A stretch of 58,844 nucleotides of DNA from Eubacteriales bacterium. Its GTDB lineage: Bacteria > Bacillota > Clostridia > Oscillospirales > CAG-272. A model generated the notes under the pieces. The model saw nothing but the letters and a program-made list of their open reading frames with translations. It did no database searches and was not told where the DNA came from. The stretch is from assembly GCA_045535095.1 (NCBI GenBank), contig JAZSKY010000043.1:1-58844 (forward strand), given 5' to 3'. Shown one piece after another: positions 1-24,028 of the stretch. Within the stretch, counting starts at the first letter, position 1. Every line of letters begins with the position of its first letter. A program made the translations under genes and the position numbers.

Positions 1-1
1 C

Positions 2-4112: not shown

Positions 4113-4526
4113 ATTACCCCGGCCGCCTCGGCGGCTGGGGAAACCCCAAAAAAAGCTGTCGAAATTTGTCGGATAAAAGTAAACACTCAAATTAGCACAA
4201 GGATCACAAATTCCCAAAACAAAGTGGGAATTTTGGTATTTTTCTATATTGACGCTTGTGATAGCTTCGAATTTCACTGAGTTATCTCACTAAAAAACGA
4301 TTTGAGAATTATCTATTATGGTGCCCAAACGAGGCTATTTATTACGGCCCCGGTGGCCGATATTTTAAAGAAGTTGATGCGAAAATTGTCGATAAAGCGA
4401 GAGTTACATATTGTAACCCCGCGCGCATCGTACATTCCATACCAAAAGAATATATAGGATTTTCTTTTGGAGAAAATTCAACATAAATGATATTTACATA
4501 AAAATGAAGAAAGAAGGCGAAAATCT

Positions 4527-5453: not shown

Positions 5454-5470
5454 TCTAAGGATGGTAATAT

Positions 5471-6034
5471 ATGTCATTTATAAAATCATTTAGCTTGTTC
5501 TATCTTTCATTAACTCCACTATGGGTATCAGTTGTATTTGTTGATGTCAGGAGTTTATGTGGAAACACAGTCAACCCGCTTACAGAAATTATAAGTATCA
5601 TTTGTATCGGCGCGGCGATGATTATTTCGGCGATTGTTGTGATGTTGACTTTTAGGAAAAAGAATGTTTCCAAGACACAATATTATACCCTGACAGAGGT
5701 AAAAGAGGAAAAATTTCTAACAGTAGAATATGTGCTTTCTTATGTTTTGTCGTTGCTTGCATTTGATTTTACGGTTTGGTATGATGTAGTACTATTTATT
5801 CTGCTTTTCTTGGTATTGTCCTTTTTGCATATTCGTCATAATATATTATGTGCAAATGTTGTACTTGAAATGTTTGGGTATAAGTATTACGAGTGCACAT
5901 TGACAAACGAGGATGGTGTACAGATCCAAAAAAGCGTTATTAGTCATAGAGACTTGATAACACAAAGAAACGAGTATATCTATGCCAAACCTATCAACAA
6001 TGAATATTATTTAGAAAGACTCCAAGTAAAGTAA
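5471..6034 (+). CDS. kwaA: Kiwa anti-phage membrane protein KwaA-like
   Basis: 187 aa, ~4 hydrophobic helices, KwaA-like pattern EYVLSYVLSL...NVVLEMFGYKYY; co-oriented with the kwaB-like gene. Confidence 0.65.
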   Translation: MSFIKSFSLFYLSLTPLWVSVVFVDVRSLCGNTVNPLTEIISIICIGAAMIISAIVVMLTFRKKNVSKTQYYTLTEVKEEKFLTVEYVLSYVLSLLAFDFTVWYDVVLFILLFLVLSFLHIRHNILCANVVLEMFGYKYYECTLTNEDGVQIQKSVISHRDLITQRNEYIYAKPINNEYYLERLQVK

Positions 6035-6150
6035 TTTTATTAGCCACTTGTTTGGACTATTGTGCTGTATAATCTTGTGCTATTAGGATACAACATCAAA
6101 GAAATAGGCTTGCCATACTAGTGCTATAATAACAGTGGTAGGTGAGTACC

Positions 6151-6249
6151 ATGAAAATTATAATACACTTTGAAACAAATAGCGGTCTTATGCGTTGCGG
6201 TGTCATCGTGTCTCTTCATAAGTTGAGGTATCTGAAGATCGTAAACTGA
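6151..6249 (+). CDS. Putative 32 aa leader peptide upstream of the Rhs gene
   Basis: RBS-like AGGTGA, ORF MKIIIHFETNSGLMRCGVIVSLHKLRYLKIVN; TGnTATAAT at 6122-6130; stop codon overlaps a terminator-like stem. Confidence 0.35.
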   Translation: MKIIIHFETNSGLMRCGVIVSLHKLRYLKIVN

Positions 6250-6296
6250 GCACATAAACCGCTTTTTCGACTGTGGTTTATGTGCTTTTTGTTTTG
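6249..6296 (+). terminator. Intrinsic terminator-like hairpin in the Rhs leader
   Basis: AGCACATAAACC (6249-6260) / GGTTTATGTGCT (6275-6286) followed by TTTTGTTTTG. Confidence 0.6.
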
Positions 6297-6334
6297 TGTC
6301 GAGAACAAAAACAACAAAGAAAGGATATACAACA

Positions 6335-9300
6335 ATGAATAAGTTCTCAATCAAACTAATATCTTTAATACTCAGCATCGCTATTATCCTCGTGACAGTG
6401 CCGTTGACAGTTTTCGCTACAACGAGAGATAAAAGCGAAGATGCGAACACAATTATCACCGACGAAGCAATGCTTGGAAATATAATGTCGGATATATACG
6501 AACTCACAGATAGGCGCGACGAATACACAAAACACTTCCGCCTTGAGGACGGAAGCGTTATTGCGGCGCAATACGATGACCCTGTTCACTATCTTGACCA
6601 AAATAATAATTGGCAGGATATAGACAATACTCTTTCGGATGTTGGTAGCGAATACTCAACGAGTAACGCCAAGATCAAGTTTGCGAAAAAGATCACCGGC
6701 AACGAAAGTCTGTTCACTCTTCACGACGGAAACGCCAAGATTACCATGAGTCTTGACGGTGCGATAAAAAAGACAGCAGGCACCGTAATTAACCACAGCG
6801 ACGATAATGAAATGACAAAGCTCCAGAAGATGATGTCGCTTGAAAAAATATCTGCTACTATCGTTTATGCGGATATTTTAGACGGTGTAGATCTCGAGTA
6901 CATTGTCAAATCGGACTACGTTAAGGAAAATATAATCGTAAAGGAACGTCAAAACTCGTACGCATATACCTTTACGCTAAAACTTAATAATCTCGATGCC
7001 GTCCTGAACTCTGATGGATCGATAAGCATTATCGAGCCGGGAACTGATAACATAGTTTACGCTATTCCGGCTCCTGTGGTTTACGACGATAATTACAACT
7101 ATGCTCCGAGCGAAGCGGCGTATTATTTGCTTGACAAAATCGGAACAAATAAATATTCTCTTACAGTTCAAGTGGATTCGGAATGGATGAATGCAGAAGA
7201 ACGTGTGTATCCCGTTGTAGTTGACCCTACCGTATATAAAGGTGGACGCAAATTGGGACAAATGAGAGATACCTATGTGAGCTCTGCTAATCCAGGTACC
7301 AACTACGGCGGACAAAAGGTTTTGCGTGCAGGGTATGACCCCACATACGGCCATACCAGGTCATACATATATCTCAAGCCGTTGCCCACACTGCCTAAGG
7401 GATCATATATAACATCGGCGGAAATCAATTTACAGATATCCAGTATATCAGAATTAAACGATATTACTCTTGCCGCGTATACCATAGATATGGGAACGAC
7501 AAGCTTGTGGAGCGAAACAAAAACGACTTGGAGTACTCATCCCGCGCAATTTTCGCAGCTTCTTGACTACGTAAATATTGAGTATATGACAGAAACCTAC
7601 GATTGGTCGTGGGATATTACCGAAGCGGCGAAGAAATGGTATAGCGGAGCTCTTCCTAATCACGGAATTTGTATCGGACTCTTGGAAGAATCGCTAACAT
7701 CTACCAATTGTGTCGTTTTCCACGCTTCCGAAAGCGATTCGTCTGCCGCCGGTTCATATTTGCCGTTCTATAGCTTCACTTACAGAGACGCAAAGGGTCT
7801 TGAGGATTATTATTCGTATTCATCTGGGAGTGCAGGACTTGTTGGCACATACAGTATTAATAATGCTACTGGAAATATGGTGTTAGTCACACCGCTTCTC
7901 TCTACAACGGACAGCTTGATGCCACTGACACTCTCGCTTGTGTATAACTCGACTCTGGCAGGTATTCCGTATCAGTATTCGGACAGTGTGATGACCGCAT
8001 ATACTAACGGATATACACCGTATGGATTTAAACTTAATATTCAAGAAACGATAATTAAGAAATCCTATATCAATTCGTCGCACGCAACGGCATATCACTA
8101 TATTTGGGCTGATGCTGATGGAACGGAACATTATTTCCTTCCTATTGAGGGAGAGAATAATAAATATCAAGATGATGATGGACTCCAGCTAATACTGGAT
8201 ACATCTTCCTCTACACAGCTTACGATTACAGATAATAGCAAAACCGTAAGAAAATTTGCCAAAATGTCATCATCGCCGAGTGGCACGGCAGAGGCGTGGT
8301 ATCTATCGAGCATTGCAGATAAAAACAATAATGCCGTATCGTTTGCATTTGATGGCGCTTACCGCCCGATAGCGGTGAACTTAGTGCCTAATGGCGGTTC
8401 TCCCATAAACTTCATTACGTTGTCTTATAATACGAACGGACTGCTGTATCTTGTTTGGAATCAAACAAGTAAGGACGGAGTCGTTATAAAATACAGGGAT
8501 CAGTTTGGAAACACTGCCGAAGGTTATGAATATGTTTTGGGTCAAATAAGCTACCTTCACGGAAATGATAGCACGACATTGCAAAACTGGAACGATTATT
8601 ATAACAGTTCGAGCAATCAAAATAATATCACTCTTGACGCTCTTGCTAATTATACGATTATGTACAACAGTCTTTCCCGTGCGTATGATTCACTATCAAA
8701 TTCCACATTTGTATTCGGATATGTCGGCAATGGCACTAACGTAAGCTTAAAGCAAGTTCAAAAAAGTAGTAATAACACTACAGGCCAAAAAATATCTTTT
8801 GAATACTTTAATGGTTACACCGAAATCAGAACGAGCGGCTCAGACGATGTTCACGGAAACGACGACGATATTATCACCGTGTGCACATTTGACGGTGAAC
8901 TTAGATTAAAGTCTAAATATTCAACCGATCTTTCGCGGTCGAAAATATACGGTGCTGTTTCGGGTGAATATGAAACCCAGCAAAATGTCAAAAACAACGT
9001 AAAACACTCGACAACCGTTGGTGGAAGTGCCACGAATTATTTGGTAAATGGTGGGTTTGAAACGACGACCACGAGCGGTGTGATGAGCGGTTGGTCGCGA
9101 ACCTCGAATGTATACCTAAGAACTACCGGTGGAGGTGGCACTCGCGACTGGGGATATATAGAAGTCCGCGCCCAAGCAGGAGTTACCGATAGCGTATCTC
9201 AGCACGTTTTGCTTCCCGAGGGAGAATATACGCTTTCAATGAGTTTGGATAGCGGATCCGCCACAAATGCCAAGGTCTACATGAAAGCCGTTTCTGTAAG

Positions 9301-12300
9301 CAATGGCACACACACCTTTATTAAAGAGTGTCCTGTTAGCAAAGACTATGCAAGCAGTACTATTGAAGTGAGTATGCCTATATCCGCACTCAACGTAACA
9401 AACGGCGGTGAGATTTTTAAAATATCAATCGAAGTTACGGGAGACAGCAATTTAAGCGGTTACTGTAGTGTGCAGTTTGACAATGTCATGCTTGCAAAAT
9501 GCGTCGGAAGTGCACCGTTTACTCGTGTAGAATGTGGTGACTTTGAAAGTTTTTCGGTGAATTCAAATGGTTCGTTTATTACTTCTGTAAGTGATTTTTG
9601 GGAAACCTCCGGAAGTAGTGTAGATTTGGAAGCTTCTGCCTATCCCTTTGGAAACGTAGCATATATCGAGTCAAACAACGGCAATACTGAATATGTAAAG
9701 CAACGAATATACACCGCCGGATACAGTATACTGGATGATTACGACAGTGGGGCGGCGTATTATGAGAGCGACAAGACCTACGTCGTGGCAGGATTTGCAA
9801 AAATATGCAACTCTCTTCCCAAGGACGTTGCCAGAATAAGAGTTGACGTGAATTATTACCAAGGAAGCGGAAATGACCTTTACGTTCAACCATATTACTT
9901 TGACTTCCAAAAAGGCTCTGACGCTTGGCAATTCGTCAGCGGAACATTCGATACAACAGCCGGCGATGTAGTACACTCTATCGATATATACTGTGAGTTT
10001 AGTTCGATCGGTCTCGGATATGCGATGTTTGATAATATCTCGGTGTTCCAAAGTGGAATTGACGAGTTTGAAGAATGTCTGTATTACGGAGACGCGGATG
10101 GCGCTAAAAACGGACTTTTGTATTACAAGAAGTCCGGTTCGTACTACGAAGTCTATGACTACGATAATCAGAAAAATCTCACCCGTGTTGCCAATAATAT
10201 GGGTGAAATACACGACTATACGTACGATGATAAGGGAAATGTTGTTCGCGAAGTATATTATAAATTCCAAAACAACAACGGTTTACCTATTTATCCCGTC
10301 TTTAACAACGACCCCGATTCTTTCATCACCAAAACCCCGCAGACGATAACAGAGTATCACTATAATAATTCCTATGGACTTCTCAGTGAAATCGATGCTT
10401 ATGAAGCACAGTATAATAGTAATGGCGATGTTGTTGCTAAGACAAACGCAAAGCACGTAATCACAAGCTACTCCTATAATCTCGGTGGCGAGTCAAGGAT
10501 TTTTGGATCACTTGCGACCGAAACAAGCAGCCGAGGTGTAGTTACAAGATATTATTACGATGCTACAAACGGACATCTTCTTGCTACGGTAAATCAAAGC
10601 AAGGGAACCGGTATTTGTTATACGTATGATGCACTTGGAAACATAACATTGGTTACACCGGCAACGTACGTATCAAGTACACAGCAGTATTCCTCTGTAA
10701 ATAATGCGGAAAAGGTAGAATATACCTACAACTCCAATAACCGCCTTAATACCATTACAACAGAGTCAACGACGTATTACTTTAACTACGACGCTTTCGG
10801 AAATGCTACCGATATAAGCGCGGGAGATAGAGAGCTTGCAAGCTATACGTATAACCCTAATAACGGCAAGCTTGCAACTATGACTTACGGTAATGGAACT
10901 ACCGTAAGATATGTTTATGACGAACTTGACAATATCAAGGAACTATGGTATAATGTGGGAGGTACAGAAACCAAGGCGTATGAGTATTCTTATACTTGGC
11001 TCGGACAGATAGCACGCTTTGATGATCTGATAAACGGCACAAGCGTTATATATACTTATGACGGCTCAGGAAGACTGACAAACGTTACCGAATATGACAC
11101 CGCAGATATGAAGAATAACTTCGGTGCATACACATTTTACAACGAGAAATCGCAGGTTAGCTCGGTATTTTATTCATCGGACTATATATACCCGGCTGGT
11201 GTGGAAAGCACTTCTTGGTGGTATAGTTATTCGTATATGCCCGATGGAAGTCTGGATTACGTAAGCGTAAATTCGGATATAACCATGGGTGAAATAGACT
11301 ATACTTACGATACGTTTAATCGCATTACGTCCAAAAAGTATTCCTACACCTACGATTATGAAACCGATTACGTAAATAACGTAACTTATTCGTATGCTCC
11401 GGGAGTTTACGATAACACGACAGCTCTTGTAAGCGGCTATACGAGCACGGTAAACGGAACAAGTACAAATTATAGCTATATTTATGATAGCAACGGTAAT
11501 ATAGAGAAAATTTATATCGGCACTACTGCGGTGTATAGATATAAATACGATGATCTCGGACAGCTCGTGCGCGAGGATAACGTTGAGCTTAACCGCACCT
11601 ACGTCTATACCTACGATAACGCAGGCAATATCCTCACCAAAAAGACCTATGCTCTCACATCGGAGGGCGTAACTCCTACAAACCCGCAGAGCACGGTAAA
11701 CTATGGTTATAACGATGCAAGCTGGGGCGACCTTCTCACATCGTATGGCGGTCAAAATATAACCTATGATGCGATAGGTAACCCTCTCTCCTACTACAAC
11801 GGAAGTAGATATACTTTCACTTGGAAGCAGGGCAGAAGGCTTGCAACAGCCGTAAAGGGAAGCAACACTCTGTCCTTTGAATATAACGACGAGGGTATTC
11901 GCGTAAGCAAGACGGTAAACGGCGTTAAGCATTCGTATCACCTTAACGGAAGCCAGATAGCGTACGAGGAGTGGGGAAATAACCTTCTCATATACCTTTA
12001 CGATGCAGACGGGAGCCCGATCGGAATGCTTCACAGAACAACATCGGATGCTTCCTACGACTTCGATGCATATTGGTTTGAAAAGATCCTGCAAGGCGAT
12101 ATAGTTGCCGTTTACAGCAGCAGCGGCACAAAGCTTGTAACCTATAAGTATGATGCTTGGGGTAATATAACCACTACCTACTATAACGGCGGTGCTTCTA
12201 CCGTAGCACAGTATAACCCTTTCCGTTACAGAGGTTATTATTACGATACCGAGACGGGGCTCTATTATGTATCCAGCCGTTATTATGATCCTGAGATTGG

Positions 12301-13036
12301 TCGGTGGATTAATGCGGATAATCAGTTCTCTACAGGTAGTGATTTGACAGGAATGAATTTGTTTGCTTACTGCGGCAATAATCCTGTTAATAGAATTGAT
12401 CTTACCGGAGAAGCTTGGTGGCATTGGGCACTTGGAGCAGCTGTTGTAGCAGCTTGTGCGGTTGCCACAGTAGTTACCTGTGGAGGTTTTGCAGCCGCAG
12501 CAACGGCTGTTTGTATGGTTGGTAGTGGTGTTGCGGCTGCTACGACCGCATCAACTGTTGCCGCCGGAGCATTTATAGGGTCGGCAACTGTTTATGGTAT
12601 GGCAGTTTTGTCTGCCGCATCCACGTCGAGTTCCGTGCAAGAGTTCAATGACCAAGGAAACTGGGGTACAGTAGCGGCAACGGCTTTCGGTGGACTAACG
12701 GGCGGATATGATGGATATACAATGTCCAAAGCACAAACACCGACAAGTACCCCGACAGGGAGAGGTACGCAGAATCCGAAAGTAAAAGCAGCGGTTCAAA
12801 AAGGTCAAGCAATGCACAAACAGATGGATTATGGACCTGGAGTTTTAAAAGAACAAACAATCGCACCTGGATGTAGGGTTGACGGAATAGATTTTAACAA
12901 TCGTATTATATATGAATTGAAACCCAACAATCCACAAGCTATTGCTCGAGGAATGAACCAGCTCAATAGATACACATCAGCCGCAAGTCAACAGTTTGGT
13001 GGGACTTGGACGGGTGTGCTTAAATTGTATGATTAG
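6335..13036 (+). CDS. WapA-like Sec-exported Rhs/YD-repeat polymorphic toxin with DNRLRE domain and C-terminal restriction-endonuclease-fold toxin (Tox-REase-9-like)
   Basis: ATG 6335 after AAAGGA; signal peptide; DTYVSS..P.TNYG DNRLRE region; YD repeats; core NPFRYRGYYYDTETGLYY...NNPVNRIDLTG; Ala/Gly-rich pre-toxin helices; tip RVDGIDFNNRIIYELKPNNP...G.NQL.RY (PD-(D/E)xK). Confidence 0.92.
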   Translation: MNKFSIKLISLILSIAIILVTVPLTVFATTRDKSEDANTIITDEAMLGNIMSDIYELTDRRDEYTKHFRLEDGSVIAAQYDDPVHYLDQNNNWQDIDNTLSDVGSEYSTSNAKIKFAKKITGNESLFTLHDGNAKITMSLDGAIKKTAGTVINHSDDNEMTKLQKMMSLEKISATIVYADILDGVDLEYIVKSDYVKENIIVKERQNSYAYTFTLKLNNLDAVLNSDGSISIIEPGTDNIVYAIPAPVVYDDNYNYAPSEAAYYLLDKIGTNKYSLTVQVDSEWMNAEERVYPVVVDPTVYKGGRKLGQMRDTYVSSANPGTNYGGQKVLRAGYDPTYGHTRSYIYLKPLPTLPKGSYITSAEINLQISSISELNDITLAAYTIDMGTTSLWSETKTTWSTHPAQFSQLLDYVNIEYMTETYDWSWDITEAAKKWYSGALPNHGICIGLLEESLTSTNCVVFHASESDSSAAGSYLPFYSFTYRDAKGLEDYYSYSSGSAGLVGTYSINNATGNMVLVTPLLSTTDSLMPLTLSLVYNSTLAGIPYQYSDSVMTAYTNGYTPYGFKLNIQETIIKKSYINSSHATAYHYIWADADGTEHYFLPIEGENNKYQDDDGLQLILDTSSSTQLTITDNSKTVRKFAKMSSSPSGTAEAWYLSSIADKNNNAVSFAFDGAYRPIAVNLVPNGGSPINFITLSYNTNGLLYLVWNQTSKDGVVIKYRDQFGNTAEGYEYVLGQISYLHGNDSTTLQNWNDYYNSSSNQNNITLDALANYTIMYNSLSRAYDSLSNSTFVFGYVGNGTNVSLKQVQKSSNNTTGQKISFEYFNGYTEIRTSGSDDVHGNDDDIITVCTFDGELRLKSKYSTDLSRSKIYGAVSGEYETQQNVKNNVKHSTTVGGSATNYLVNGGFETTTTSGVMSGWSRTSNVYLRTTGGGGTRDWGYIEVRAQAGVTDSVSQHVLLPEGEYTLSMSLDSGSATNAKVYMKAVSVSNGTHTFIKECPVSKDYASSTIEVSMPISALNVTNGGEIFKISIEVTGDSNLSGYCSVQFDNVMLAKCVGSAPFTRVECGDFESFSVNSNGSFITSVSDFWETSGSSVDLEASAYPFGNVAYIESNNGNTEYVKQRIYTAGYSILDDYDSGAAYYESDKTYVVAGFAKICNSLPKDVARIRVDVNYYQGSGNDLYVQPYYFDFQKGSDAWQFVSGTFDTTAGDVVHSIDIYCEFSSIGLGYAMFDNISVFQSGIDEFEECLYYGDADGAKNGLLYYKKSGSYYEVYDYDNQKNLTRVANNMGEIHDYTYDDKGNVVREVYYKFQNNNGLPIYPVFNNDPDSFITKTPQTITEYHYNNSYGLLSEIDAYEAQYNSNGDVVAKTNAKHVITSYSYNLGGESRIFGSLATETSSRGVVTRYYYDATNGHLLATVNQSKGTGICYTYDALGNITLVTPATYVSSTQQYSSVNNAEKVEYTYNSNNRLNTITTESTTYYFNYDAFGNATDISAGDRELASYTYNPNNGKLATMTYGNGTTVRYVYDELDNIKELWYNVGGTETKAYEYSYTWLGQIARFDDLINGTSVIYTYDGSGRLTNVTEYDTADMKNNFGAYTFYNEKSQVSSVFYSSDYIYPAGVESTSWWYSYSYMPDGSLDYVSVNSDITMGEIDYTYDTFNRITSKKYSYTYDYETDYVNNVTYSYAPGVYDNTTALVSGYTSTVNGTSTNYSYIYDSNGNIEKIYIGTTAVYRYKYDDLGQLVREDNVELNRTYVYTYDNAGNILTKKTYALTSEGVTPTNPQSTVNYGYNDASWGDLLTSYGGQNITYDAIGNPLSYYNGSRYTFTWKQGRRLATAVKGSNTLSFEYNDEGIRVSKTVNGVKHSYHLNGSQIAYEEWGNNLLIYLYDADGSPIGMLHRTTSDASYDFDAYWFEKILQGDIVAVYSSSGTKLVTYKYDAWGNITTTYYNGGASTVAQYNPFRYRGYYYDTETGLYYVSSRYYDPEIGRWINADNQFSTGSDLTGMNLFAYCGNNPVNRIDLTGEAWWHWALGAAVVAACAVATVVTCGGFAAAATAVCMVGSGVAAATTASTVAAGAFIGSATVYGMAVLSAASTSSSVQEFNDQGNWGTVAATAFGGLTGGYDGYTMSKAQTPTSTPTGRGTQNPKVKAAVQKGQAMHKQMDYGPGVLKEQTIAPGCRVDGIDFNNRIIYELKPNNPQAIARGMNQLNRYTSAASQQFGGTWTGVLKLYD

Positions 13037-13047
13037 AGGTGAGATAA

Positions 13048-13458
13048 ATGATGCTTAATCATAATGAATATTTGAATTATACATTACCTAACAATTGGTG
13101 TGCCGAAGAGGATATTGATAATCTTCTTTTGTATAATCCCAGCGGCAATGGTGCGATAACAACATCTTTTTTCAATGTTTTAAAAACAAAAGAATCTTTA
13201 GATGAGCAGATAAGCATATTGGCCAAAAGATTTATTGAACAAAATAATATCAATCTGCATTCTCCTTTAATACTTTTCAACAGAGATGGCAAGACAATTT
13301 TGTACGGAACAGGCACAACATCTGATGGTTGGTTTATAAAATTGTGGGTTGTTGCCAAACACCCGAAAATAGTGTTTGCCACATATCAAAGTGAACGAAA
13401 AAGCGCTGAAGTGAAAGTATGTGATTCTATCATCGATAGTTTTCAGTTCGCATTTTAG
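13048..13458 (+). CDS. Putative immunity protein for the Rhs REase tip (PsbP/DcrB/DUF3805-like fold)
   Basis: Immediately downstream of the toxin, RBS GAGGTGA; N-terminal YTLPNNW and C-terminal IIDSFQF patterns typical of PsbP-like folds. Confidence 0.65.
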   Translation: MMLNHNEYLNYTLPNNWCAEEDIDNLLLYNPSGNGAITTSFFNVLKTKESLDEQISILAKRFIEQNNINLHSPLILFNRDGKTILYGTGTTSDGWFIKLWVVAKHPKIVFATYQSERKSAEVKVCDSIIDSFQFAF

Positions 13459-13638
13459 TCATGGTATTATTTGAGATAAAAAGGTTTCAGGAATGTTCCT
13501 GACAAGTCTGTGTTTGGGTGTCCAAAAATGATGCTTGTCGGTACATAACAGTACCATTCTCTTTTTCGGCGAGTAACCCACCGAAAAACAACGTCCCGGA
13601 GGGGGACAACCCCTCCGGGTACATAGCAAAACCCAGCC

Positions 13639-14418
13639 GAAATCGGATTCTATTACCTCAACAGCAGATACTACGATCCCGAAATGGGTAGGTTTATTAA
13701 TGCGGATGGCGTGATGTCCGGTGCAGACGGATCACTACAAGGTGCAAATCTGTTCGCTTATTGCTTTAATAATCCGGTTAATCTTGATGATTCTGATGGT
13801 AATTGGCCCAATTGGTTGAAAGTTACGATTGGCGCTGTTGCAACCGTGGCCGCGGTCGCTATTACAGTAGCAACCGGAGGTGCGGCAGCTCCGGTTTTGA
13901 TTGGAGTGGCAGCAAGCACTGTGGGCGGTGCGGCGTTTGGGGCAGTCAACCACCGTATTACCACTGGAAGCTGGGAAGGAGCAGGAGAAGCCGCTTTAGA
14001 TGGAGCTGCAGATGGATTCATGTGGGGAGGAATAGGCGCCCTCGGATCTTCTGCTGTGTCTGCCATCCCCAAAATTACAAAGGCAGCCAATGCAGCAAAG
14101 TCAGATCCTATAAAAAAAGCGCTGAAACAATTGGATTCATCTGGTCTGCGTCCCGGACAAACATCAATATCTCGCAGCAGAGTTATGGAACTTGTTAACA
14201 ATTTTGACTCAACTAAAGCTCAAAGTTGTGTATATTCAAACGGTGCAACAAGATTTTTAGTAGATGGGCATCATACTACAGTAGCAAGTACAATTTTAGG
14301 AAAAGGTACTTGTATGAATATGGGAGCAGTTACATCACAGTTGCCTTCTGCAACAAATGTATATTGGTCAAAAAATTGGTATGAATTTGGAAAGACAGTC
14401 ATTAAAATTATGGATTGA
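13639..14418 (+). CDS. Orphan Rhs C-terminal toxin module (core remnant plus ParB/Srx-like tip)
   Basis: Begins mid-core as EIGFYYLNSRYYDPEMGRFINAD, with an in-frame stop just upstream (13624) and no clear RBS; NNPVNLDDSDG; hydrophobic pre-toxin region; tip LRPGQ...FLVDGHHT. Confidence 0.8.
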   Translation, partial: EIGFYYLNSRYYDPEMGRFINADGVMSGADGSLQGANLFAYCFNNPVNLDDSDGNWPNWLKVTIGAVATVAAVAITVATGGAAAPVLIGVAASTVGGAAFGAVNHRITTGSWEGAGEAALDGAADGFMWGGIGALGSSAVSAIPKITKAANAAKSDPIKKALKQLDSSGLRPGQTSISRSRVMELVNNFDSTKAQSCVYSNGATRFLVDGHHTTVASTILGKGTCMNMGAVTSQLPSATNVYWSKNWYEFGKTVIKIMD

Positions 14419-14427
14419 GGGGATGTA

Positions 14428-14958
14428 ATGAAAAAAAAATCTGCTTTTGCCGAACTATTATATGTTGTTTCAAATTTTGAAAAAGGTAGGGTAAAATCCT
14501 CTGGTATATGGAATAAAAAATATGTTAAATCATTGGAAAGTTCAATAGAAATTATGACCCTTCTTACAAATTTAATTTCAGGGAATAAAGAAATTTCACA
14601 AAACGAAATTCATTTTTTACAAGACTTTATTCATAAAAACAAAGGCATTATTTTTAATAACGAAGGAAATATTGATGTTATTTTTGATGATAAAAACGAT
14701 TTTATACCTTCATCTAATGACTTTGAAGAACCCATAAAATTAATGAACTATATCATAATAGAAATCAAGAATCTTTTACGCACCAAGAGCAAAAACTATA
14801 AAATTAAAATATCGTATTTACTGAAAGCGTTTCATAACTTGCCAAAAGTTTTTCTCGACCCAAAAGATACTCGAGTGTTTAATCTTGATATTCATCCCAT
14901 AGACCAGCAAGAAGCCGTTCAATACGCATTTTCATATATTTCAATAATATACAAATAA
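14428..14958 (+). CDS. Putative immunity protein for the orphan toxin
   Basis: Directly follows the orphan tip, RBS GAGGGG; very AT-rich; contains FHNLP. Confidence 0.65.
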   Translation: MKKKSAFAELLYVVSNFEKGRVKSSGIWNKKYVKSLESSIEIMTLLTNLISGNKEISQNEIHFLQDFIHKNKGIIFNNEGNIDVIFDDKNDFIPSSNDFEEPIKLMNYIIIEIKNLLRTKSKNYKIKISYLLKAFHNLPKVFLDPKDTRVFNLDIHPIDQQEAVQYAFSYISIIYK

Positions 14959-15117
14959 ATCCATTGAGAAAATTCATTACGGCATCTGTTGCATTGATCC
15001 ATATTAAAACTTTAAATTAGGAATCCATGCCGTTTAATACAATGACTTGGTTTGGAAAGCTAATTTGAATTTGCTTATAAAAATAATGGATAGTCAGCAT
15101 TAATAACCATACCCTGT

Positions 15118-15151
15118 AAAGCTCCGCTCATTTTGGGCGGAGTTTTCTTTT
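15118..15151 (+). terminator. Intrinsic terminator ending the Rhs locus
   Basis: GCTCCGCTCA-TTT-TGGGCGGAGT followed by TTTCTTTT. Confidence 0.65.
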
Positions 15152-15205
15152 GCTCGTATTTATATACAAAAAAATTCAAAAACATAGCACTTTTTCGCAA
15201 AACCC

Positions 15206-15235
15206 TTGACAAATTCTTACAGATTATGCTATACT
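15206..15235 (+). promoter_or_regulatory. Sigma-A type promoter
   Basis: TTGACA-18 nt-TATACT with TGn extended -10. Confidence 0.55.
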
Positions 15236-15265
15236 ACAGTTGCGACACAACAGAATAAAAGTCTT

Positions 15266-15754
15266 ATGGGTACAGTTTCATTAAAGCTTGAACTTACAGA
15301 AGATTATGGCGTGACAGATGCGTGGGTCTTTACAGCAACCGAATATAATTTTGTAGTCAAAGAATCTGATCTTGGGACATACTTAACCGAAGAAGAGCTT
15401 AAATCTTCTGAAACAATAGAAAAAGTCAAAAGTTATCTTAAGACGAAAGATGAGTTTGGGTTTCAAGGCAAGGATATAGAGTCATTTGAGAGCTTTTATT
15501 TGGCGACAATAAAGACGGAAATAAAAAACGAGCATGAGAAGAAACACGCTCTTGTGGTAGTTGCGTATGAAGATAACGGATGGTGGGAAGGATACTGCTG
15601 TCACGTACTATACGATATTTACCGCATAGGAGATTCGATTTTTGCGGATTTAGATTACCATGCAGGGGATGAGAGTTACACGGAAACCGTCAGCGACGTG
15701 CTTAATGGACTTGATGACGATTATACGTACAAACTCATAAAGAAATTTGGATAA
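15266..15754 (+). CDS. Acidic hypothetical protein (possibly a gene remnant)
   Basis: ORF between a consensus promoter and a terminator. The track's TTG at 15206 is the -35 box, so ATG 15266 is preferred; no clear RBS. Confidence 0.5.
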   Translation: MGTVSLKLELTEDYGVTDAWVFTATEYNFVVKESDLGTYLTEEELKSSETIEKVKSYLKTKDEFGFQGKDIESFESFYLATIKTEIKNEHEKKHALVVVAYEDNGWWEGYCCHVLYDIYRIGDSIFADLDYHAGDESYTETVSDVLNGLDDDYTYKLIKKFG

Positions 15755-15755
15755 G

Positions 15756-15787
15756 AAAATAAGCCGCTCGGAAGAGCGGCTTATTTT
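15756..15787. terminator. Bidirectional intrinsic terminator
   Basis: AAAATAAGCCGCTC-GGAA-GAGCGGCTTATTTT perfect inverted repeat. Confidence 0.75.
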
Positions 15788-15838
15788 GATGCATATATCG
15801 TTTTATCGCTTCATAAAATGTTTGCTTTTTAATAATGA

Positions 15839-15965
15839 TTTCAAAAACACCAGTAATTTTGAAAGCGATTGAAATTTTATCAGCAGTAAAAAGGGCTACA
15901 AAACACCAGTATTTTTGAAATTGAATAGAATATTCAATAACACCCCAACACCAGTGTTTTGGAAA
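15839..15965. repeat. Three copies of a ~26 bp pseudo-palindromic site
   Basis: AACACCAGT(A/G)(A/T)TTT(T/G)GAAA at 15846, 15902 and 15947; idealised consensus TTTCAAAAACAC-CA-GTGTTTTTGAAA. Confidence 0.7.
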
Positions 15966-16401
15966 TGGCCGTTTTGTCGCACCAATCTTTAGATAACACA
16001 GCGTGAATTTTTTCGTTTTGCTCGTTTTTTTGTGTTTTTTTCTATCCAATTATGCTACAAAATCTACATTATTCGGGAACTTACCTTAAAACACCGTCTT
16101 GCTTGCTCTCGTGTGAACTTTCTATGAAATATAACGTAAGAAGATAATTAATGTAATAAAGATATCTAGATGTCGAACTTCTAATTTGTAAATCGTTAAT
16201 ACTGATATATTTGCCTATAAAACTAAAACCTTATCAATGGAGTAAACAGTGTCGTAGCTTAATTGCAACGGTACTGTTTTTATTTTATGAATTTTGATAA
16301 TTAAAATGCTGAATTTATCTAAATTTGCATCTTTGTAATTACTTTTTCTTTCATACTTATATTGAAAGAAAAAACATGAGAGGAGAAAAAAATAACCGAA
16401 T

Positions 16402-16608
16402 GCTGGTTATACCGCATGTAATTGTGGTATAACCAGCCAACTGTTCGGAAACAGGGATGCTTACGTGAATAGTCAACCCGTAAGATCCGCCTAGCTCGGC
16501 GAAAAGATTAAGAAAAATATTAGAAAACTATTTTGAATAACTTTTCCTAAAATGTAGCCAAGACCGTTTAACACCCACCGTGGTGGCGCAATTGTAAAAT
16601 TACAATTG
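16402..16608 (+). other. Multi-hairpin structured leader upstream of the tyrosine recombinase (candidate ncRNA or recombinase/nicking site)
   Basis: Stems at 16402-16437 (15 bp with one G-U), 16441-16454, 16455-16488, 16575-16586 and 16589-16608. Confidence 0.5.
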
Positions 16609-16660
16609 TGATTTAAAAAATCTTACATACTTAAAATAGAAAAAAGAAAAGGAGAAAAAT

Positions 16661-17614
16661 ATGGGAAAGCGGAAAAGAAAAGCAACCGTTACACAGCGAA
16701 TCACCGCAGAAGCAACAGAGCAGTTAAGTGGCATCAAGCATGATGCTACCCGGAAACAGTACATACGGCATTTTAAATCGTATGTACGTTATTGCAGAGA
16801 CACACACAATGTTAAGTTTCTTGAGGATTGTCAATCGTACGTCCAGGATTACTGTGACAATTTAGTAAGCAGCGGAAAGTATAGCGCCTCGACAGTACAC
16901 ACGTATATTGCAGCAATATGTAGAGTACTTAACATTAACATGCGTATTGTGAAAAAGCCAATACGTCATGTGGCCGACTATGTACGCGGACGTACAGAGA
17001 GGTTCGGAGGTGCTACTTATGATGAAAACGATCCAAGATGGTCATATGTCGTAGAATTTCAAAAGAGAGTTGGCATTCGACGGAATGAACTTGAGCATTT
17101 GCGTGGGTGCGATTTTGCGACCGATGAAAGTAATTATCCGTGTGTGCTGGTTAGATGCGGCAAAGGCGGTAAGATTCAATATCAGCGTATAGATGTGGAA
17201 GATATTGAATTTGTGCGCCAGTTTTTTACACGCGTTGAAAAAGATGATTATATTTTTGAAAAATCGTTGTTCCAAAATAATCTTAATTTACATGGACTGC
17301 GTGCCGACTGTGCAAAAAAGTATTATGCAGATGTGCTAAAACGCCTTAAGGAAGATCCGAAATACGCCAAACAACTCGAAGGCAAAATACGAAAACGATG
17401 GGATTTATACTGCCGTGATAAGAAGGGAAGACCTCGTCGGTTTCCTGAACATGAAATTCGTGGTTGGTATATATTACGTGGTAAAAATCGCGAAATGGCA
17501 CGCAGAAAAGGATTGCCTGTATCATATAACAAACTGGCGTTAATGGCTACATCAATTTTTAAGTTGTCACATTGGCGAAATGATGTGACTGTGGCTAGCT
17601 ATCTTTTGGCATAA
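16661..17614 (+). CDS. Tyrosine recombinase (divergent, Integrase_1-like, no arm-binding domain)
   Basis: Catalytic set R (GIRRNEL), K (GKGGK), HxxR (HGLR), H (LSHWR), Y (ASYLL); SAM-like N-terminus (YSASTVHTYIAAI); RBS AAGGAG. Confidence 0.85.
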   Translation: MGKRKRKATVTQRITAEATEQLSGIKHDATRKQYIRHFKSYVRYCRDTHNVKFLEDCQSYVQDYCDNLVSSGKYSASTVHTYIAAICRVLNINMRIVKKPIRHVADYVRGRTERFGGATYDENDPRWSYVVEFQKRVGIRRNELEHLRGCDFATDESNYPCVLVRCGKGGKIQYQRIDVEDIEFVRQFFTRVEKDDYIFEKSLFQNNLNLHGLRADCAKKYYADVLKRLKEDPKYAKQLEGKIRKRWDLYCRDKKGRPRRFPEHEIRGWYILRGKNREMARRKGLPVSYNKLALMATSIFKLSHWRNDVTVASYLLA

Positions 17615-17647
17615 AAAAATAATTAAAAATAAAAAAGGAGAATTGGT

Positions 17648-18064
17648 ATGAAACAAACAACGTTCAATGAAATTTGGGATGAGGCGCATAATGACAGAGA
17701 GGAAATGTTATCGATGTATTTTAAATCTGAATATTTATCTCGTTTGTTAAGTAAAAAGGAGATTATTATGACACGAGATACTATAGCGGCCGCAGAGGCA
17801 ACAAGAACCTTTGATGACTTTTGCAATGTTTTTAATAAGTCGGCACTTAGTATTATGGAAGAATTTGAAATTCCATCCGATGTTGTTGATGAATGGCGCA
17901 ACGGTACATTTCCTCTGTACTTGAAACGTATGATTGCATGTTCGCTCGTATCTGCTGCTATTGAAGATGGTCGTTGCAAAACTTGTCAGTTATGTGGTGA
18001 ATTTTTCTTTTCTAAACACAAGACGGCTTTGTTTTGCGAGGATTGTTGTGAGTGTGTTTTCTGA
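17648..18064 (+). CDS. Small HTH-like protein with C-terminal Cys-rich zinc finger
   Basis: RBS AAGGAG; HTH-like FEIPSDVVDEWRNG; C-terminal CQLCG...FCEDC. Confidence 0.6.
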   Translation: MKQTTFNEIWDEAHNDREEMLSMYFKSEYLSRLLSKKEIIMTRDTIAAAEATRTFDDFCNVFNKSALSIMEEFEIPSDVVDEWRNGTFPLYLKRMIACSLVSAAIEDGRCKTCQLCGEFFFSKHKTALFCEDCCECVF

Positions 18065-18197
18065 AACAAGAAAAAATCGCTATTCAAAAACCACTTTATT
18101 TATTTTTTTCTGTCATACTTATTATGTCGTGCGCGATACTGTTCATGGCCATGAACGAAAATCTTATCAAAAAAACAAACAGAAAAGGAAAAAACTT

Positions 18198-19655
18198 ATG
18201 GAAAATTCGAAACAGAATGTGTCTTGCATTAGTGACACAATAGCATCAACAGAAGCGTTTTTAAATTCGGTTAAACCAGAAACTGGTTATCCCTACAGTC
18301 ATTCCGACATTGGAGCCGCAGAGCTATTTGCAGATTGTTACAAAGACATTTTACGGTACAGTCCGGAACGTAAAAAATGGTATCACTATAAGGATGGCGT
18401 TTGGTCAGTAGATAAGGGAGGTGATATTATAGCAATGAATTTTTGTCAAAATCTAGCCAAAAGATTATGTGACTATGCTACAAATCTATGCGGAAAATAT
18501 CAGTATGAAAAATTTGTTGCTTTTGTATCAGGTTGGCAGAGACACAGCAAACGGGTAAATATACTAAATGATGCACGAGGATATCATCCAATGTCGATGG
18601 AAATGCTGGATCGGGATATATATGCATTTAATTGTCAAAACGGAACGCTCCATCTAGACACTATGGAGTTTACGCAGCATCGCCCTGGTGATATGATTTC
18701 AAAAATCAGCAATGTGATCTATGATCCTAGTGCAAGATGTAATCGATTTTTGACTTTTATCGATGAGATTACCTGTGGAGATAGTGAAAAAGCAAGATTC
18801 TTGCAAAAAGTTTTAGGGTATAGCTTGACGGGAGATACTCGCTACGAATGTATGTTTTTTCTGTACGGTGCCACAACGCGCAACGGCAAGAGTACATTAT
18901 GCGAAAGTGTCCTAAAAGTCATTGGTGAGTATGGTTGTACTGTGCGACCGGAAACTATAGCTTTAAACAAATACGCTAACAGCCATGCGCCGAATGAGGA
19001 TGTGGCACGATTGATAGGTATTAGATTTGCCAACATATCAGAAATATCGCCAACACTTGCAATTAATACATCCCAAATCAAAAGTATGCTGGGTAACGAT
19101 ACAATCAATGCTCGCTTTTTACACGAAAACAGCTTTGATTTTAAAATACAGGCCAAATTTTTTGTAAACACAAATTATTTGCCAAATATAGAGGATGAGT
19201 CTGTATTTAGTAGCGGCCGTATAATTGTAATACCCTTTACAAGGCACTTCTACGAGCATGAACAAGATAAAACGTTAAAAACTCTATTTGCACAACCGGA
19301 AAATCAAAGTGCTATACTTAACTGGTTGGTCGAAGGGTACAAAATGCTTTTGGAAGAAGGTCTTAACATTCCAGTGTCAATAGAAAACGCAACTTCTGAA
19401 TATGCCGGCGATAGCAACATATTTGTTAAATTTGTTGCTGACAAGTTGATTGAAGATCCTGATTCCGAGATCCGTACCATGCAGGCATATCAAGAATACA
19501 AACAATGGTGTCTTGATAACGGATATGGTCCAGTGTCTATCCAACGTTTTGTGAGCGTATTAGCTAACATTGTAACCATCCGAAAAAAACGACCTAAAAC
19601 AGGCGGTAATCCCACCGGAATGATTTGTGGTTATAGATTGGTGATACAACAATGA
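18198..19655 (+). CDS. Phage/plasmid P4/D5-family SF3 helicase (D5_N plus helicase; no primase domain)
   Basis: ATG 18198 after AAGGA; D5_N motifs (NCQNGTLHLDT); Walker A GATTRNGKST; Walker B region FANISE; motif C VNTN; C-terminal wHTH-like region. Confidence 0.88.
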   Translation: MENSKQNVSCISDTIASTEAFLNSVKPETGYPYSHSDIGAAELFADCYKDILRYSPERKKWYHYKDGVWSVDKGGDIIAMNFCQNLAKRLCDYATNLCGKYQYEKFVAFVSGWQRHSKRVNILNDARGYHPMSMEMLDRDIYAFNCQNGTLHLDTMEFTQHRPGDMISKISNVIYDPSARCNRFLTFIDEITCGDSEKARFLQKVLGYSLTGDTRYECMFFLYGATTRNGKSTLCESVLKVIGEYGCTVRPETIALNKYANSHAPNEDVARLIGIRFANISEISPTLAINTSQIKSMLGNDTINARFLHENSFDFKIQAKFFVNTNYLPNIEDESVFSSGRIIVIPFTRHFYEHEQDKTLKTLFAQPENQSAILNWLVEGYKMLLEEGLNIPVSIENATSEYAGDSNIFVKFVADKLIEDPDSEIRTMQAYQEYKQWCLDNGYGPVSIQRFVSVLANIVTIRKKRPKTGGNPTGMICGYRLVIQQ

Positions 19656-19755
19656 TGTAATGTGTAGCGTTGTAGCGGATATTTGGCGATATAAAAATAA
19701 TATAATAGCATAAATTAGAAAAATATAATGTATATATCCGCTACATTCGATACAA
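19656..19755. other. Putative replication origin of the element
   Basis: TGTAGCGGATAT (19671-19682) / ATATCCGCTACA (19734-19745) inverted repeat with extra TGTA(G) repeats, flanking a ~50 bp AT-rich core directly after the helicase stop. Confidence 0.55.
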
Positions 19756-19835
19756 CAGATATTAGATTTAAAAACTGCATAATTCAAATTAAATTGTGCT
19801 AAGAATAATTATAGCATTATATGTGAGGTGTTTTA

Positions 19836-20012
19836 ATGGTCTCTAAAAAGACGGACAGCACAGTAAATCGTACGGCAGAGGAGATATGGCTAAATTATTT
19901 TAACCGATATCTGTTTGAGCAAGGTACCATCAGCGAAAAAGAGTACAATATGATGACCCAAAAGATTTCGGAGTATATGTCAAGACGGTACACTTTCAAT
20001 GTGCTTCGCTAA
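19836..20012 (+). CDS. 58 aa SHOCT-like protein preceding the serine recombinase (not in the ORF track)
   Basis: RBS GAGGTG; MVSKKTDSTVNRTAEEIWLNYFNRYLFEQGTISEKEYNMMTQKISEYMSRRYTFNVLR with the L...G.IS..EY pattern. Confidence 0.7.
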   Translation: MVSKKTDSTVNRTAEEIWLNYFNRYLFEQGTISEKEYNMMTQKISEYMSRRYTFNVLR

Positions 20013-20081
20013 GCTTTACACGGACGGTTTCAAGCAAATCGTCCATACATAACTACAAAATTGTAAAGTTTCTAATTACAC

Positions 20082-20110
20082 TTGCATTTTTGAAAGTCGT
20101 GTGATATAAT
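20082..20110 (+). promoter_or_regulatory. Sigma-A promoter of the serine recombinase
   Basis: TTGCAT-17 nt-TATAAT with TGn extension. Confidence 0.65.
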
Positions 20111-20159
20111 ACATTCAAAACATATAATGATACAACGAACTTTATCAAGGAGAACAACA

Positions 20160-21851
20160 ATGGATATACTTAATATTAGAGCACTCTTGCGTACGAAATC
20201 CATATATGACATTCCTCTTCGCGTGACATTTTATGCCCGTGTTTCCTCGGAAACCGACGAGCAGCTCAACTCACTTGACAATCAGATTGCATACTACGAA
20301 AATTTTATTAAAAATAACGCAAAGTGGACCTATGTTCCCGGATATATCGACGAGGGTCTTTCGGGTATCTCTACGAAAAAAAGAAAACATTTCAATGAGA
20401 TGATCTCCGATGCGAAAGAAGGACTATTTGATCTTATCATTACCAAGGAGATTTCCCGATTTGCCCGTAACACATTGGACTCTCTGCAATATACAAGAGA
20501 GCTTATCAGACTAGGTGTGGGCGTGTTCTTTCAGAATGATAACATCAACACACTTGACGAGGATGCAGAGCTTCGTCTTACGATTATGTCATCTATCGCA
20601 CAGGACGAGCTTCGCAAGCTTTCGAGTCGTGTGAAGTTCGGTCATCAGCAAGCAATCAAGTCGAGCGTGGTTCTCGGCAACAGCCGCATTTTTGGATATA
20701 TAAAAGATGATAAAAAGCTGGCTGTCGATGAGAGCCAAGCTCCTATGGTACGCGATCTTTTTCGTCTGTATGCTACGGGCGAGTACAGTATGAAACAGCT
20801 TGAAACACTCTTTTATGACCAAGGTTATCGTAATTATAACGGTAACAAAATTGCTCATACTACGATGTCGGGCATTATCTCTAACCCTAAATACAAGGGA
20901 TATTATGTCGGCAACAAGGTGCGCGTTGTGGACATGTTTACCAAGAAACAGAAATTCTTACCGCCCGACGAGTGGGTGATGTTCAAGGATGAAACAGGGG
21001 AAATCGTGCCTGCAATCGTATCCGAGGAAATATGGGATAAGGCAAACGAAGTTCTGGCGCGCCGTAGCGAGGATGTGAAGAACCGCAAGGGTGTCTGCAA
21101 CCACGCCAACCTCCTAACAGGCAAACTGTATTGCACTCATTGCGGCATGCCTTACTATCGCCGAGAATCAAAAGATAAGCACGGTAATATTAATTCAAAA
21201 TGGGTGTGTTCCGGAAAGATAAATAACGGCGCTAGTTCATGCCCGTCTTTCCCGATATATGAAGACGAGATCAAACCGATTCTGTTCGATGTTTTCAATG
21301 AAACGCGAGTAGATGTGGAATCACTGATTGAAAGCTATATAGAGATGTTTAGGTCAATGGAAGCCGATGATGAGACTGCAAAACAGATAAAGGAGCAGAA
21401 GCGCACCATAGAGCTTGCAGAACAAAAGAAAAACAAACTTCTTGAACTTGTAACGCTTGGCGCTGTTACCGCAGAGAATTTTAAATCAATGACCACAGCC
21501 TGCGACCGAGAAATTGCGCAGGCGAGCGGAGAGATCGAGGAACTCGAAAAGCAGATGTTCACCAAAGATGAATACCGCAGACATATAGCAGAGGTCAGAA
21601 CACGTTTGGATGCGGCGGTAAGAGATGCCTCGACGGGTATAATATCCCCCGAATTCGTTGCGAGGTACATCGACAAAATCACGGTCACAATAACTGATGA
21701 TGATACAGCGAACTTGGAAATTAAGATTTTCACGGGTGAAAGTACTGAAAAATGGCTGAAAAAGCTTGATTTAAGAACTAAAATTCGTACGGGTGTCACT
21801 ATGAAGAAGATGGTCGAGAAGTACGAGAACGACCTTAAGAACAACAAATAA
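20160..21851 (+). CDS. Large serine recombinase (resolvase, recombinase and Zn-ribbon/coiled-coil domains)
   Basis: ATG 20160 after AAGGAG; YARVSS catalytic Ser; DEGLSG; ISRFARN; LLTGKLYCTHCG...WVC...C. Confidence 0.95.
   Translation: MDILNIRALLRTKSIYDIPLRVTFYARVSSETDEQLNSLDNQIAYYENFIKNNAKWTYVPGYIDEGLSGISTKKRKHFNEMISDAKEGLFDLIITKEISRFARNTLDSLQYTRELIRLGVGVFFQNDNINTLDEDAELRLTIMSSIAQDELRKLSSRVKFGHQQAIKSSVVLGNSRIFGYIKDDKKLAVDESQAPMVRDLFRLYATGEYSMKQLETLFYDQGYRNYNGNKIAHTTMSGIISNPKYKGYYVGNKVRVVDMFTKKQKFLPPDEWVMFKDETGEIVPAIVSEEIWDKANEVLARRSEDVKNRKGVCNHANLLTGKLYCTHCGMPYYRRESKDKHGNINSKWVCSGKINNGASSCPSFPIYEDEIKPILFDVFNETRVDVESLIESYIEMFRSMEADDETAKQIKEQKRTIELAEQKKNKLLELVTLGAVTAENFKSMTTACDREIAQASGEIEELEKQMFTKDEYRRHIAEVRTRLDAAVRDASTGIISPEFVARYIDKITVTITDDDTANLEIKIFTGESTEKWLKKLDLRTKIRTGVTMKKMVEKYENDLKNNK
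21785..21851 (+). pseudogene. Putative attR and displaced 3' end of an alpha/beta-type SASP (ssp) gene, in frame with the recombinase
   Basis: KKMVEKYENDLKNNK resembles the clostridial SASP C-terminal helix (MVKKMxExYE); codons switch to host style at ~21804; TCGTAC/GTACGA inverted hexamers at 21785 and 21821. Confidence 0.6.
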
Positions 21852-21895
21852 AAGATCGTTTGAAATTTAAACCAAAACAAATACCTTTTGGTTTG

Positions 21896-21932
21896 AAAGA
21901 GGCGGGAGGCTGTGCTTCCTGCCTTTTTTCTT
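21896..21932 (+). terminator. Intrinsic terminator
   Basis: AGGCGGGAGGC-TGT-GCTTCCTGCCT followed by TTTTTCTT. Confidence 0.75.

Positions 21933-22012: not shown

Positions 22013-24028
<2,016 letters not shown>

Follow-up and report, generated by a model that had tools for sequence, protein, structure and literature searches.

Serine recombinase islands inserted in a spore protein gene, with reciprocal exchange of C-terminal tails

Sporulation intervening elements (skin in sigK, SPbeta in spsM, gin in gerE, and vfbin and vrin) carry a recombinase, split a sporulation gene and rebuild it when they excise. In the available portions of two accounts of these elements (PMC4191935, PMC5595907), the targets are mother-cell-specific, excision is confined to the mother cell, and a directionality factor sets the direction of recombination in SPbeta and in the C. 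difficile skin. Here we describe a locus of comparable layout in a stretch of 58,844 nucleotides from Eubacteriales bacterium (assembly GCA_045535095.1, contig JAZSKY010000043.1; this whole stretch is called the window), in which the open reading frame (ORF) of a large serine recombinase, at the right-hand end of a genomic island, runs into the last codons of ssp, a gene for an alpha/beta small acid-soluble spore protein (SASP). As in the known intervening elements, the coding sequence of a sporulation gene is interrupted by an element that bears a recombinase. The target here is a SASP gene rather than a mother-cell-specific one, and the recombinase and the host protein exchange C-terminal tails reciprocally, a feature of which the same portions of the two accounts hold no mention.

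A second parallel is mycobacteriophage BPs, in which the element's attachment site (attP) likewise lies inside an element ORF and the free and integrated forms of a protein differ at their C-termini. According to the available part of PMC3694055, BPs uses a tyrosine integrase, the ORF that is cut encodes the repressor, and integration truncates this protein by removing a degradation tag. Unlike in BPs, the ORF cut here is that of the serine recombinase, which is re-tailed from the host gene, and the host protein is re-tailed as well.

Large serine recombinases also serve the mobilisable elements Tn4451 and Tn4453 (TnpX, TnpV) of Clostridia, and TnpV is also found in one of the relatives analysed below (G348); unlike these transposons, the present clade is site-specific for ssp. 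Lyras and Rood reportedly showed in 2000 that expression of the Tn4451 integrase depends on the state of the element through a promoter made at the junction. Integrase control in ICEKp1 is likewise state-dependent at the promoter level, as described in the available part of PMC13023037. In Tn4451 and integrative and conjugative elements the junction thus alters the promoter, at the 5' end, whereas here it alters the C-terminus, the stop codon and the terminator. Full-text literature searches returned no paper in which a serine recombinase targets a SASP gene, and no description of a serine integrase with attP in its own ORF; the match that recurred was a review of SPbeta, an element whose cargo includes an ssp gene. 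The word 'spore' is absent from the main text of the recombinase preprint of Durrant et al., whose supplementary Pfam list of target genes might include SASP.

The window is the complete contig C78 of genome G000 (1.73 Mb in 78 contigs, 96% complete). We compared it with seven genomes of the same genus (G001-G007) and with two other relatives that have both junctions (G348 and G366). To find the boundary, window positions 21600-22600 served as the query in a DNA search of 41 related genomes, 28 of which matched. A species-level scan, with one genome per species, covered 502 relatives and was analysed on the best 80, and a family sample comprised 401 genomes in 97 genera from the family of the window's organism.

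The right junction and its recurrence

The features around the right-hand junction (attR) are:

1..21803, no strand: right-hand part of the island, at least 21.8 kb, with its left end and attL outside the contig (GC content, homology)
20160..21851, forward strand: large serine recombinase ORF, integrated form, 563 aa (Pfam, phrog_95)
21804..21851, forward strand: last 15 codons and stop of the host alpha/beta SASP gene (3' remnant), serving as the recombinase tail (homology)
21895..21929, forward strand: terminator-like hairpin of 16 pairs with a T run, the host ssp terminator and now that of the recombinase
21972-22000: promoter-like site before ligA
22052..24028, forward strand: ligA, the host gene flanking ssp at empty sites (ORF)

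The protein has the architecture of a large serine recombinase: an N-terminal resolvase catalytic domain with the serine nucleophile (Resolvase, PF00239, 1.2e-29, residues 24-167) is followed by a Recombinase domain (PF07508, 3.4e-18) and a zinc ribbon (Zn_ribbon_recom, PF13408, 1.7e-11) with an inserted coiled coil, the latter arrangement being read from Pfam and the structural model. The phrog_95 integrase family matches residues 18-540 at 3.1e-108, and R27, V28 and S29 are invariant among 28 aligned sequences. When the recombinase was searched by sequence against solved structures, the match was confined to the catalytic domain.

The ORF ends in KKMVEKYENDLKNNK, just as an earlier note on this DNA had read it. 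That note placed a switch to host-like sequence at about 21804, and the DNA search located it at exactly this base, well before the end of the ORF at 21851: matches to G004 and G005 begin at query base 205, which is window position 21804, and continue into ligA. Residues 1-548 of the recombinase are hence element-coded, and residues 549-563 and the stop codon are ssp-coded. The 48-nt block 21804-21851 also matches alone, at 83-96% identity, in G001, G006, G007 and six further genera, and it differs by 0-6 mismatches per 48 nt from the ssp end or attR of the seven same-genus genomes. In G001, G004, G005, G006 and G007 this block closes an intact 67-aa SASP ORF, whereas in G002 and G003, as in the window, it is the end of a serine recombinase ORF. 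Strains with an intact ssp upstream of ligA, a comparison suggested in the earlier note, thus make up five of the seven same-genus genomes (empty site), the other two being occupied, and the proposal that the element is integrated in an ssp gene is borne out, with the alpha/beta SASP gene upstream of ligA as the target. The DNA match is contiguous from the ssp remnant into ligA in G004, G005 and G002. The terminator and core genes expected after the junction are likewise present, as the hairpin followed by ligA and obg, and GC content is 0.33-0.46 to the left of the boundary versus ∼0.48-0.53 past 22 kb.

Contigs from public sequencing runs share at most 28% of the query words. Four of them from X2, two of which are listed, have the 48-nt block with an intact ssp left arm before 21804, and one of the two listed is identical over 21804-21851; these contigs may represent either an empty-site strain or excision.

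The junction recurs widely. A SASP-like tail is present in 119 of the 120 closest recombinase homologues listed, all at least 82% identical, the exception being P0006. Among the best 80 of the 502 loci, 70 match the SASP tail pattern (49 distinct tails), five more do so by eye, four have non-SASP ends (L074, L092, L099, and L102) and one runs off its contig, so that 75 of 79 readable loci end SASP-like. The tail can be recognised as host DNA, since it varies in the manner of SASP C-termini while the bodies of the enzymes keep 66-87% identity. In the family sample, the C-terminal part of the recombinase was detected in 34 of 401 genomes and 25 of 97 genera (E up to 1e-15), with 26 of 35 match rows reaching into the tail. 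The genomes of the species-level scan are labelled as Candidatus Flemingiibacterium, Oscillospiraceae, Acutalibacteraceae, Faecousia and Eubacteriales, and come from animal and human gut.

These data bear on whether the junction is real. The window belongs to a metagenome-style contig with one junction only, as an assembly chimera might, and a SASP-like tail could in principle be the recombinase's own, convergent C-terminus. We consider both explanations extremely improbable: assemblies made independently, from many sources, show the same junction, DNA identity extends through the ssp stop codon, the intergenic region and ligA in the order of the empty sites, and the reciprocal junction is present in four genomes. 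Since the same junction occurs in independent assemblies, a chance junction is excluded.

Left junctions, the crossover site and the exchanged tails

The reciprocal, left-hand junction (attL) was recovered together with attR in four relatives, 17 kb upstream of attR on a single contig in G002, 28 kb apart on a single contig in G366, and on two contigs each in G003 and G348. In all four, SASP residues 1-52 run into a tail coded by the element, which is lysine followed by NIPTIRTMKQVSFERTNRIVDGHKTTVRYIAELTI in G002 and asparagine followed by NMNPVRTMRFERHNRISQGHKITVKYAFSLTV in G003 and G348, with a related tail in G366; homology is shared among all these element-coded tails. Between the G003 and G348 tails a single codon of 33 differs, synonymously, even though the two hosts are of different genera, and this near-identity points to a recent transfer of the element.

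Side-by-side comparison leaves AA as the sole dinucleotide common to attL and attR in all four pairs, which defines the following features in the window:

21785..21793, forward strand: outer 9-mer TCGTACGGG, the element arm (P arm) of attR (comparison)
21804..21805, forward strand: crossover dinucleotide AA, bases 1 and 2 of SASP codon 53 and of recombinase codon 549

In attR of G002, G003, G348 and G366 this 9-mer occupies positions 19 to 11 nt to the left of the crossover; its mirror, CCCGTACGA, occupies positions 11 to 19 nt on the right side in three of the attL, and G002 has two mismatches there. To judge from their sequences, the four attL/attR pairs thus have the 2-bp core and mirrored 9-mers typical of serine integrase attachment sites. 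The attP reconstructed from them reads TCGTACGGG, 10 nt, AA, 10 nt, CCCGTACGA, and is situated within the recombinase reading frame. The earlier note had taken TCGTAC and GTACGA as inverted hexamers flanking the switch. The first (21785-21790) does fall within the arm 9-mer, but the second (21821-21826) is no mirror copy; it is ssp coding DNA at +16 to +21, the true mirror being found at attL in relatives.

The same note had placed attP inside the recombinase ORF, and this agrees with the attL of the four relatives and with two metagenome contigs that have both arms in one ORF (see below). With attP in this position, integration therefore swaps the C-terminal tails of integrase and SASP, as the note had anticipated and as the reciprocal junctions of the four relatives demonstrate. 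One carrier deviates: in G169 (C2:62697-62780, L035), the SASP 5' fragment breaks after about residue 30 and not 52, which implies a different or additional disruption of ssp.

What the recombinase gives up on integration is a native tail of 32-35 residues after the crossover. A search with the 36-aa G002 tail among 1.84 billion representative proteins yielded six matches, none of them a recombinase. P0121 has the same tail on the SASP stump of another host, four proteins (P0122, P0123, P0124, and P0125) have homologous tails on unrelated short N-termini, that of P0123 being HicA-like by eye, and the sixth match is P0126 (1065 aa, E 3.4e-4). The tail thus moves together with the recombinase clade, some relatives apparently using other targets, and P0122-P0125 suggest that sister elements split other small genes in the same way.

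Forms that have not recombined were found in more distant relatives. Among metagenome contigs, where only a looser, degenerate pattern covering the two arms succeeded, L047 and L048 have recombinase ORFs, 37-39% identical to the C-terminal part of the window's recombinase, that read through both arms into a homologous tail. A viral contig (L023) has both arms in one ORF of 603 aa, with a tail that is alike at the arm motif only, and L025 and L026 (43% identity) have a terminal tail that is similar by eye. A loose attP pattern run on viral contigs gave seven matches, all attributable to chance and none adjoining a recombinase. Among the non-SASP loci mentioned above, the recombinases of the genome contigs L092 and L102 (78-81% identical) end three residues (LTI) after the crossover position, and lack both a SASP tail and the long native one. 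On two further viral contigs, L027 and L028, recombinases 42-43% identical to that of the window terminate a few bases from the 3' part of a sigK-like gene, whose DNA translates as the conserved region of the sigma factor. Both are skin-like elements, and their recombinase ORF likewise abuts or crosses the junction.

An AlphaFold2 model of the recombinase (28-row alignment; mean predicted local distance difference test score, pLDDT, 71; predicted template modelling score, pTM, 0.33) has long helices at 368-491 between zinc-ribbon strands, final zinc-ribbon strands at 504-511 and 517-523, and then a low-confidence helix at 527-561. Because the crossover falls after residue 548, past the last modelled strands, the swapped piece would be a terminal appendage outside any folded domain. 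The crossover also lies past the end of the phrog_95 alignment at residue 540.

Two features upstream of this junction concern the control of the enzyme:

19836..20012, forward strand: 58-aa ORF, candidate recombination directionality factor (conservation, predicted complex)
20082..20110, forward strand: vegetative-type promoter-like site for the recombinase, TTGCAT-17 nt-TATAAT (sequence reading)

In 44 aligned recombinase upstream regions, conservation of the TTGC and TATAAT columns is 80% or higher; a consensus promoter scan did not list the site, the first hexamer of which matches at three of six positions. The 58-aa ORF is kept just upstream of the recombinase in G002 (E 1e-8) and G366, occurs in 42 distinct versions among the best 80 of the 502 loci, and has W18, L19, Y21 and N23 invariant among 31 aligned sequences, with no Pfam or PHROG family above cut-off. 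In a predicted complex with recombinase residues 305-563 it reaches an interface score (ipSAE) of 0.77, compared with 0.00 for the best of three controls. Of 80 solved complexes, 58 reach the mark used for this score, as do 2 of 110 mismatched pairs; this calibration applies only approximately here, the complex having been predicted from our own alignments. At least 94% of contacts are shared between runs, and the pLDDT of the partner is 78 or higher. The predicted contacts (379-400, 478-503, and 523-525) make up the domain-proximal part of the coiled coil; directionality factors bind at the domain-proximal junction of coiled coil and zinc ribbon, according to the available part of PMC12286644. 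The model lends support to binding and makes the 58-aa product a candidate directionality factor.

The host SASP gene and the readings of the exchange

At empty sites the gene is a complete SASP: the G004 protein scores 102 bits against PF00269 (cut-off 22), and covers 59 of 59 profile positions; for its alignment with B. subtilis SspC (entry 2z3x), E is 1.1e-5. G001, G004 and G005 each have one full PF00269 locus, whereas G002 and G003 have a truncated locus only (positions 1-50 or 1-51 of 59), and 15 codons remain in the window in place of a full-length gene. A SASP query matches 335 of the 401 family genomes, about 20 with two matches and none with more; the family has one SASP gene per genome. 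A full-length PF00269 match was found in none of five further carriers, and an intact alpha/beta SASP gene detectable by these queries in none of the eight carriers examined (including G000, G002, and G003).

The stump is cut at the position aligned with SspC GGEIT, before KRLV, a point that would lie inside the second DNA-binding helix of the SspC structure. To judge from the truncation, SASP function is probably lost in the integrated state. Upstream of attL, G002 and G003 have the promoter region and ribosome-binding site of ssp just as empty sites do, and since these are intact the fusion of SASP and element tail is probably still produced. By eye, this promoter appears to be of the forespore type.

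Our preferred reading, which we hold with high confidence, is that the island is inserted in the sole alpha/beta SASP gene at the AA of codon 53, with attP in the recombinase ORF and the tails exchanged. A modular island, made up of variable cargo, the 58-aa candidate and the recombinase at its right end, has recombined with the host ssp through an attP situated about 32-35 codons before the recombinase's native stop. On integration, the recombinase gains the last 15 SASP residues with the ssp stop codon and terminator, and SASP residues 1-52, behind their own promoter, gain the native tail of the recombinase. The integrated-form enzyme is most likely still active, the exchanged segment lying past the last folded DNA-binding element, and we infer that both forms of the enzyme are active. 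Together with its 58-aa partner it would excise the island and restore both genes exactly. As for the purpose of the swap, we incline, by a modest degree, to regard ssp as mainly a short, strongly conserved and tolerable landing site and the exchange as a built-in by-product. Such a tolerated by-product is at least as likely as the two options put forward in the earlier note, a rebuilding of the gene in the forespore or a switch based on the stability or activity of the two integrase forms.

Several observations weigh against parts of this reading. The insertion in the window's own genome is assigned from one junction and by analogy with relatives. At E up to 10, the PF00269 profile matched neither the window nor any other part of G000, and in a tblastn search of G000 with the G004 SASP the sole match was C78:21792-21848, the next best having E 0.48. 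The 5' part of ssp had been expected past the left edge, and the start of the contig inside the island fits this, while the 5' half itself, like attL, is absent from the assembly. The ssp-upstream flanks of five relatives gave no useful blastn match in G000 and, by tblastx, paralogous regulators only; neighbourhoods upstream of ssp are not conserved among relatives. As to the unrecombined enzyme, the G002-type tail was found on no protein longer than 154 aa and no such form was found in close relatives, a strict attP pattern had no match in metagenome contigs, and the three attP-form contigs (L023, L047, and L048) come from relatives that are ∼37-65% identical. The score of the predicted complex is a model confidence and may partly reflect likeness to solved complexes of integrases and their factors, and the loss of SASP function is deduced from truncation at profile position 50 of 59 alone. 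Finally, the native tail is conserved as protein (pattern FER..RI..GH..V.Y) 30-90 nt past the crossover. Such conservation exceeds what an att half-site would need, and it argues against a purely neutral by-product.

This last observation is also what favours a state switch, in which the excised and integrated recombinases would differ in stability or activity and the element would sense its integration. That attP lies within the ORF in relatives of 37-43% identity (L025, L026, L047, and L048) points the same way, although the tail of L023 is alike at the arm motif only, so that the conserved peptide is not universal. Native tails also end non-polar (LTI, LTV, IAI, LCI, VRI) and SASP tails polar, and we assume from other systems that non-polar C-termini could act as degrons here; the integrated-form tail, however, exists in at least 49 variants and could matter only by the absence of the native one. 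A precedent is offered by BPs, in which attP lies in rep and a degradation tag is removed (PMC3694055, available part). By analogy with that case a switch is conceivable, and we regard it as rather unlikely, well behind the by-product.

The sporulation genotype bears on a further alternative. G000 has spo0A, spoIVA, two spoVAC/EB genes and gpr, which encodes the SASP-specific germination protease, and thus has the genotype of a spore former. SASP genes are expressed in the forespore, and for this reason the mother-cell logic would lose the element from the germ line. Developmental excision in the forespore would instead rebuild the sole SASP gene, with the circle persisting in the spore and re-integrating at germination, a course that strikes us as improbable. 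The known intervening elements all excise during sporulation (PMC4191935, PMC5595907, available parts), but these are all mother-cell events, since that genome is not inherited. Carriers without another alpha/beta SASP gene nevertheless keep spo0A, spoIVA, spoVA and gpr. The predicted excision module is present as well, yet the recombinase has a conserved vegetative-type promoter, and no conserved promoter, of sporulation type or other, was seen upstream of the 58-aa ORF in 22 elements. A possible look-alike of a forespore-type promoter, present upstream of this ORF in the window alone, is not counted as evidence here. The intact ssp promoter and ribosome-binding site before attL in G002 and G003 would suit a rebuilt gene, but in G002 and G366 a terminator-like hairpin after the attL tail ORF, seen by eye, would block read-through from ssp.

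Slightly less probable still is a two-way functional exchange, in which the native tail would make the excised enzyme short-lived or integration-biased and would neutralise the SASP stump, while the island would excise in the forespore, rebuild SASP, ride the spore as a non-replicating circle and re-integrate at germination.

Island cargo and what the insertion means for its carriers

The remaining features of the island in the window are:

2-2386: secreted lectin/peptidase-like protein (RicinB/Big_2/Peptidase_C70-like), open at the contig end
4527-5453: KwaB-like protein (PF16162, 1.4e-6)
6296-13036: rearrangement hotspot (RHS) protein, 2246 aa, with a C-terminal Tox-REase-9 tip, followed by small ORFs
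∼18198-19655: D5-type (D5_N) primase-helicase

No phage structural genes were seen among the island proteins scanned. Cargo is variable: the 28-kb element of G366 shares only the 58-aa ORF and the recombinase with the window's island and has other cargo, and the cargo of the G002 element is different again.

At 4527-6034 the KwaB-like protein is followed by a multi-pass membrane-like protein (phrog_7312, 5.6e-16), possibly as a Kiwa-like defence pair carried by the island; the gene order differs from that of Kiwa. The segment 6296-14958 contains the RHS/Tox-REase-9 gene, a small ORF (13048-13458), an ORF resembling the end of an RHS core (13684-14418) and another small ORF (14428-14958), and has the appearance of a polymorphic toxin locus in the island cargo, complete with orphan tip and candidate immunity genes. 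A 317-aa ORF at 16661-17614 weakly resembles, below cut-off (E 0.0098), the SAM-like N-terminal domain of phage integrases, and its product is possibly a degenerate or divergent tyrosine recombinase. In G348, TnpV (L034:1788-2129; PF14198, 3.9e-34) is the first gene after attL, ∼35 nt past the stop of the tail ORF. No terminator is visible by eye in this gap, where G002 and G366 have a hairpin instead, and for this reason the ssp promoter could read into TnpV in G348.

The existence of gene-splitting elements has been explained by the mother cell being a dead end, an explanation that a forespore-expressed target does not fit. Either the spores of the carriers, which are common gut bacteria, do without their main DNA protectant, or an excision programme exists in the carriers. 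An attP inside the integrase ORF makes for a natural integrase whose C-terminus reports its integration state, and the loci described here yield a group of serine integrases, closely related to each other, for which attB and attP are known and a directionality factor is predicted. If forespore excision with re-integration were true, it would constitute a reversible rearrangement of a sporulation gene that is compatible with the germ line, and would explain how carriers cope without SASP.

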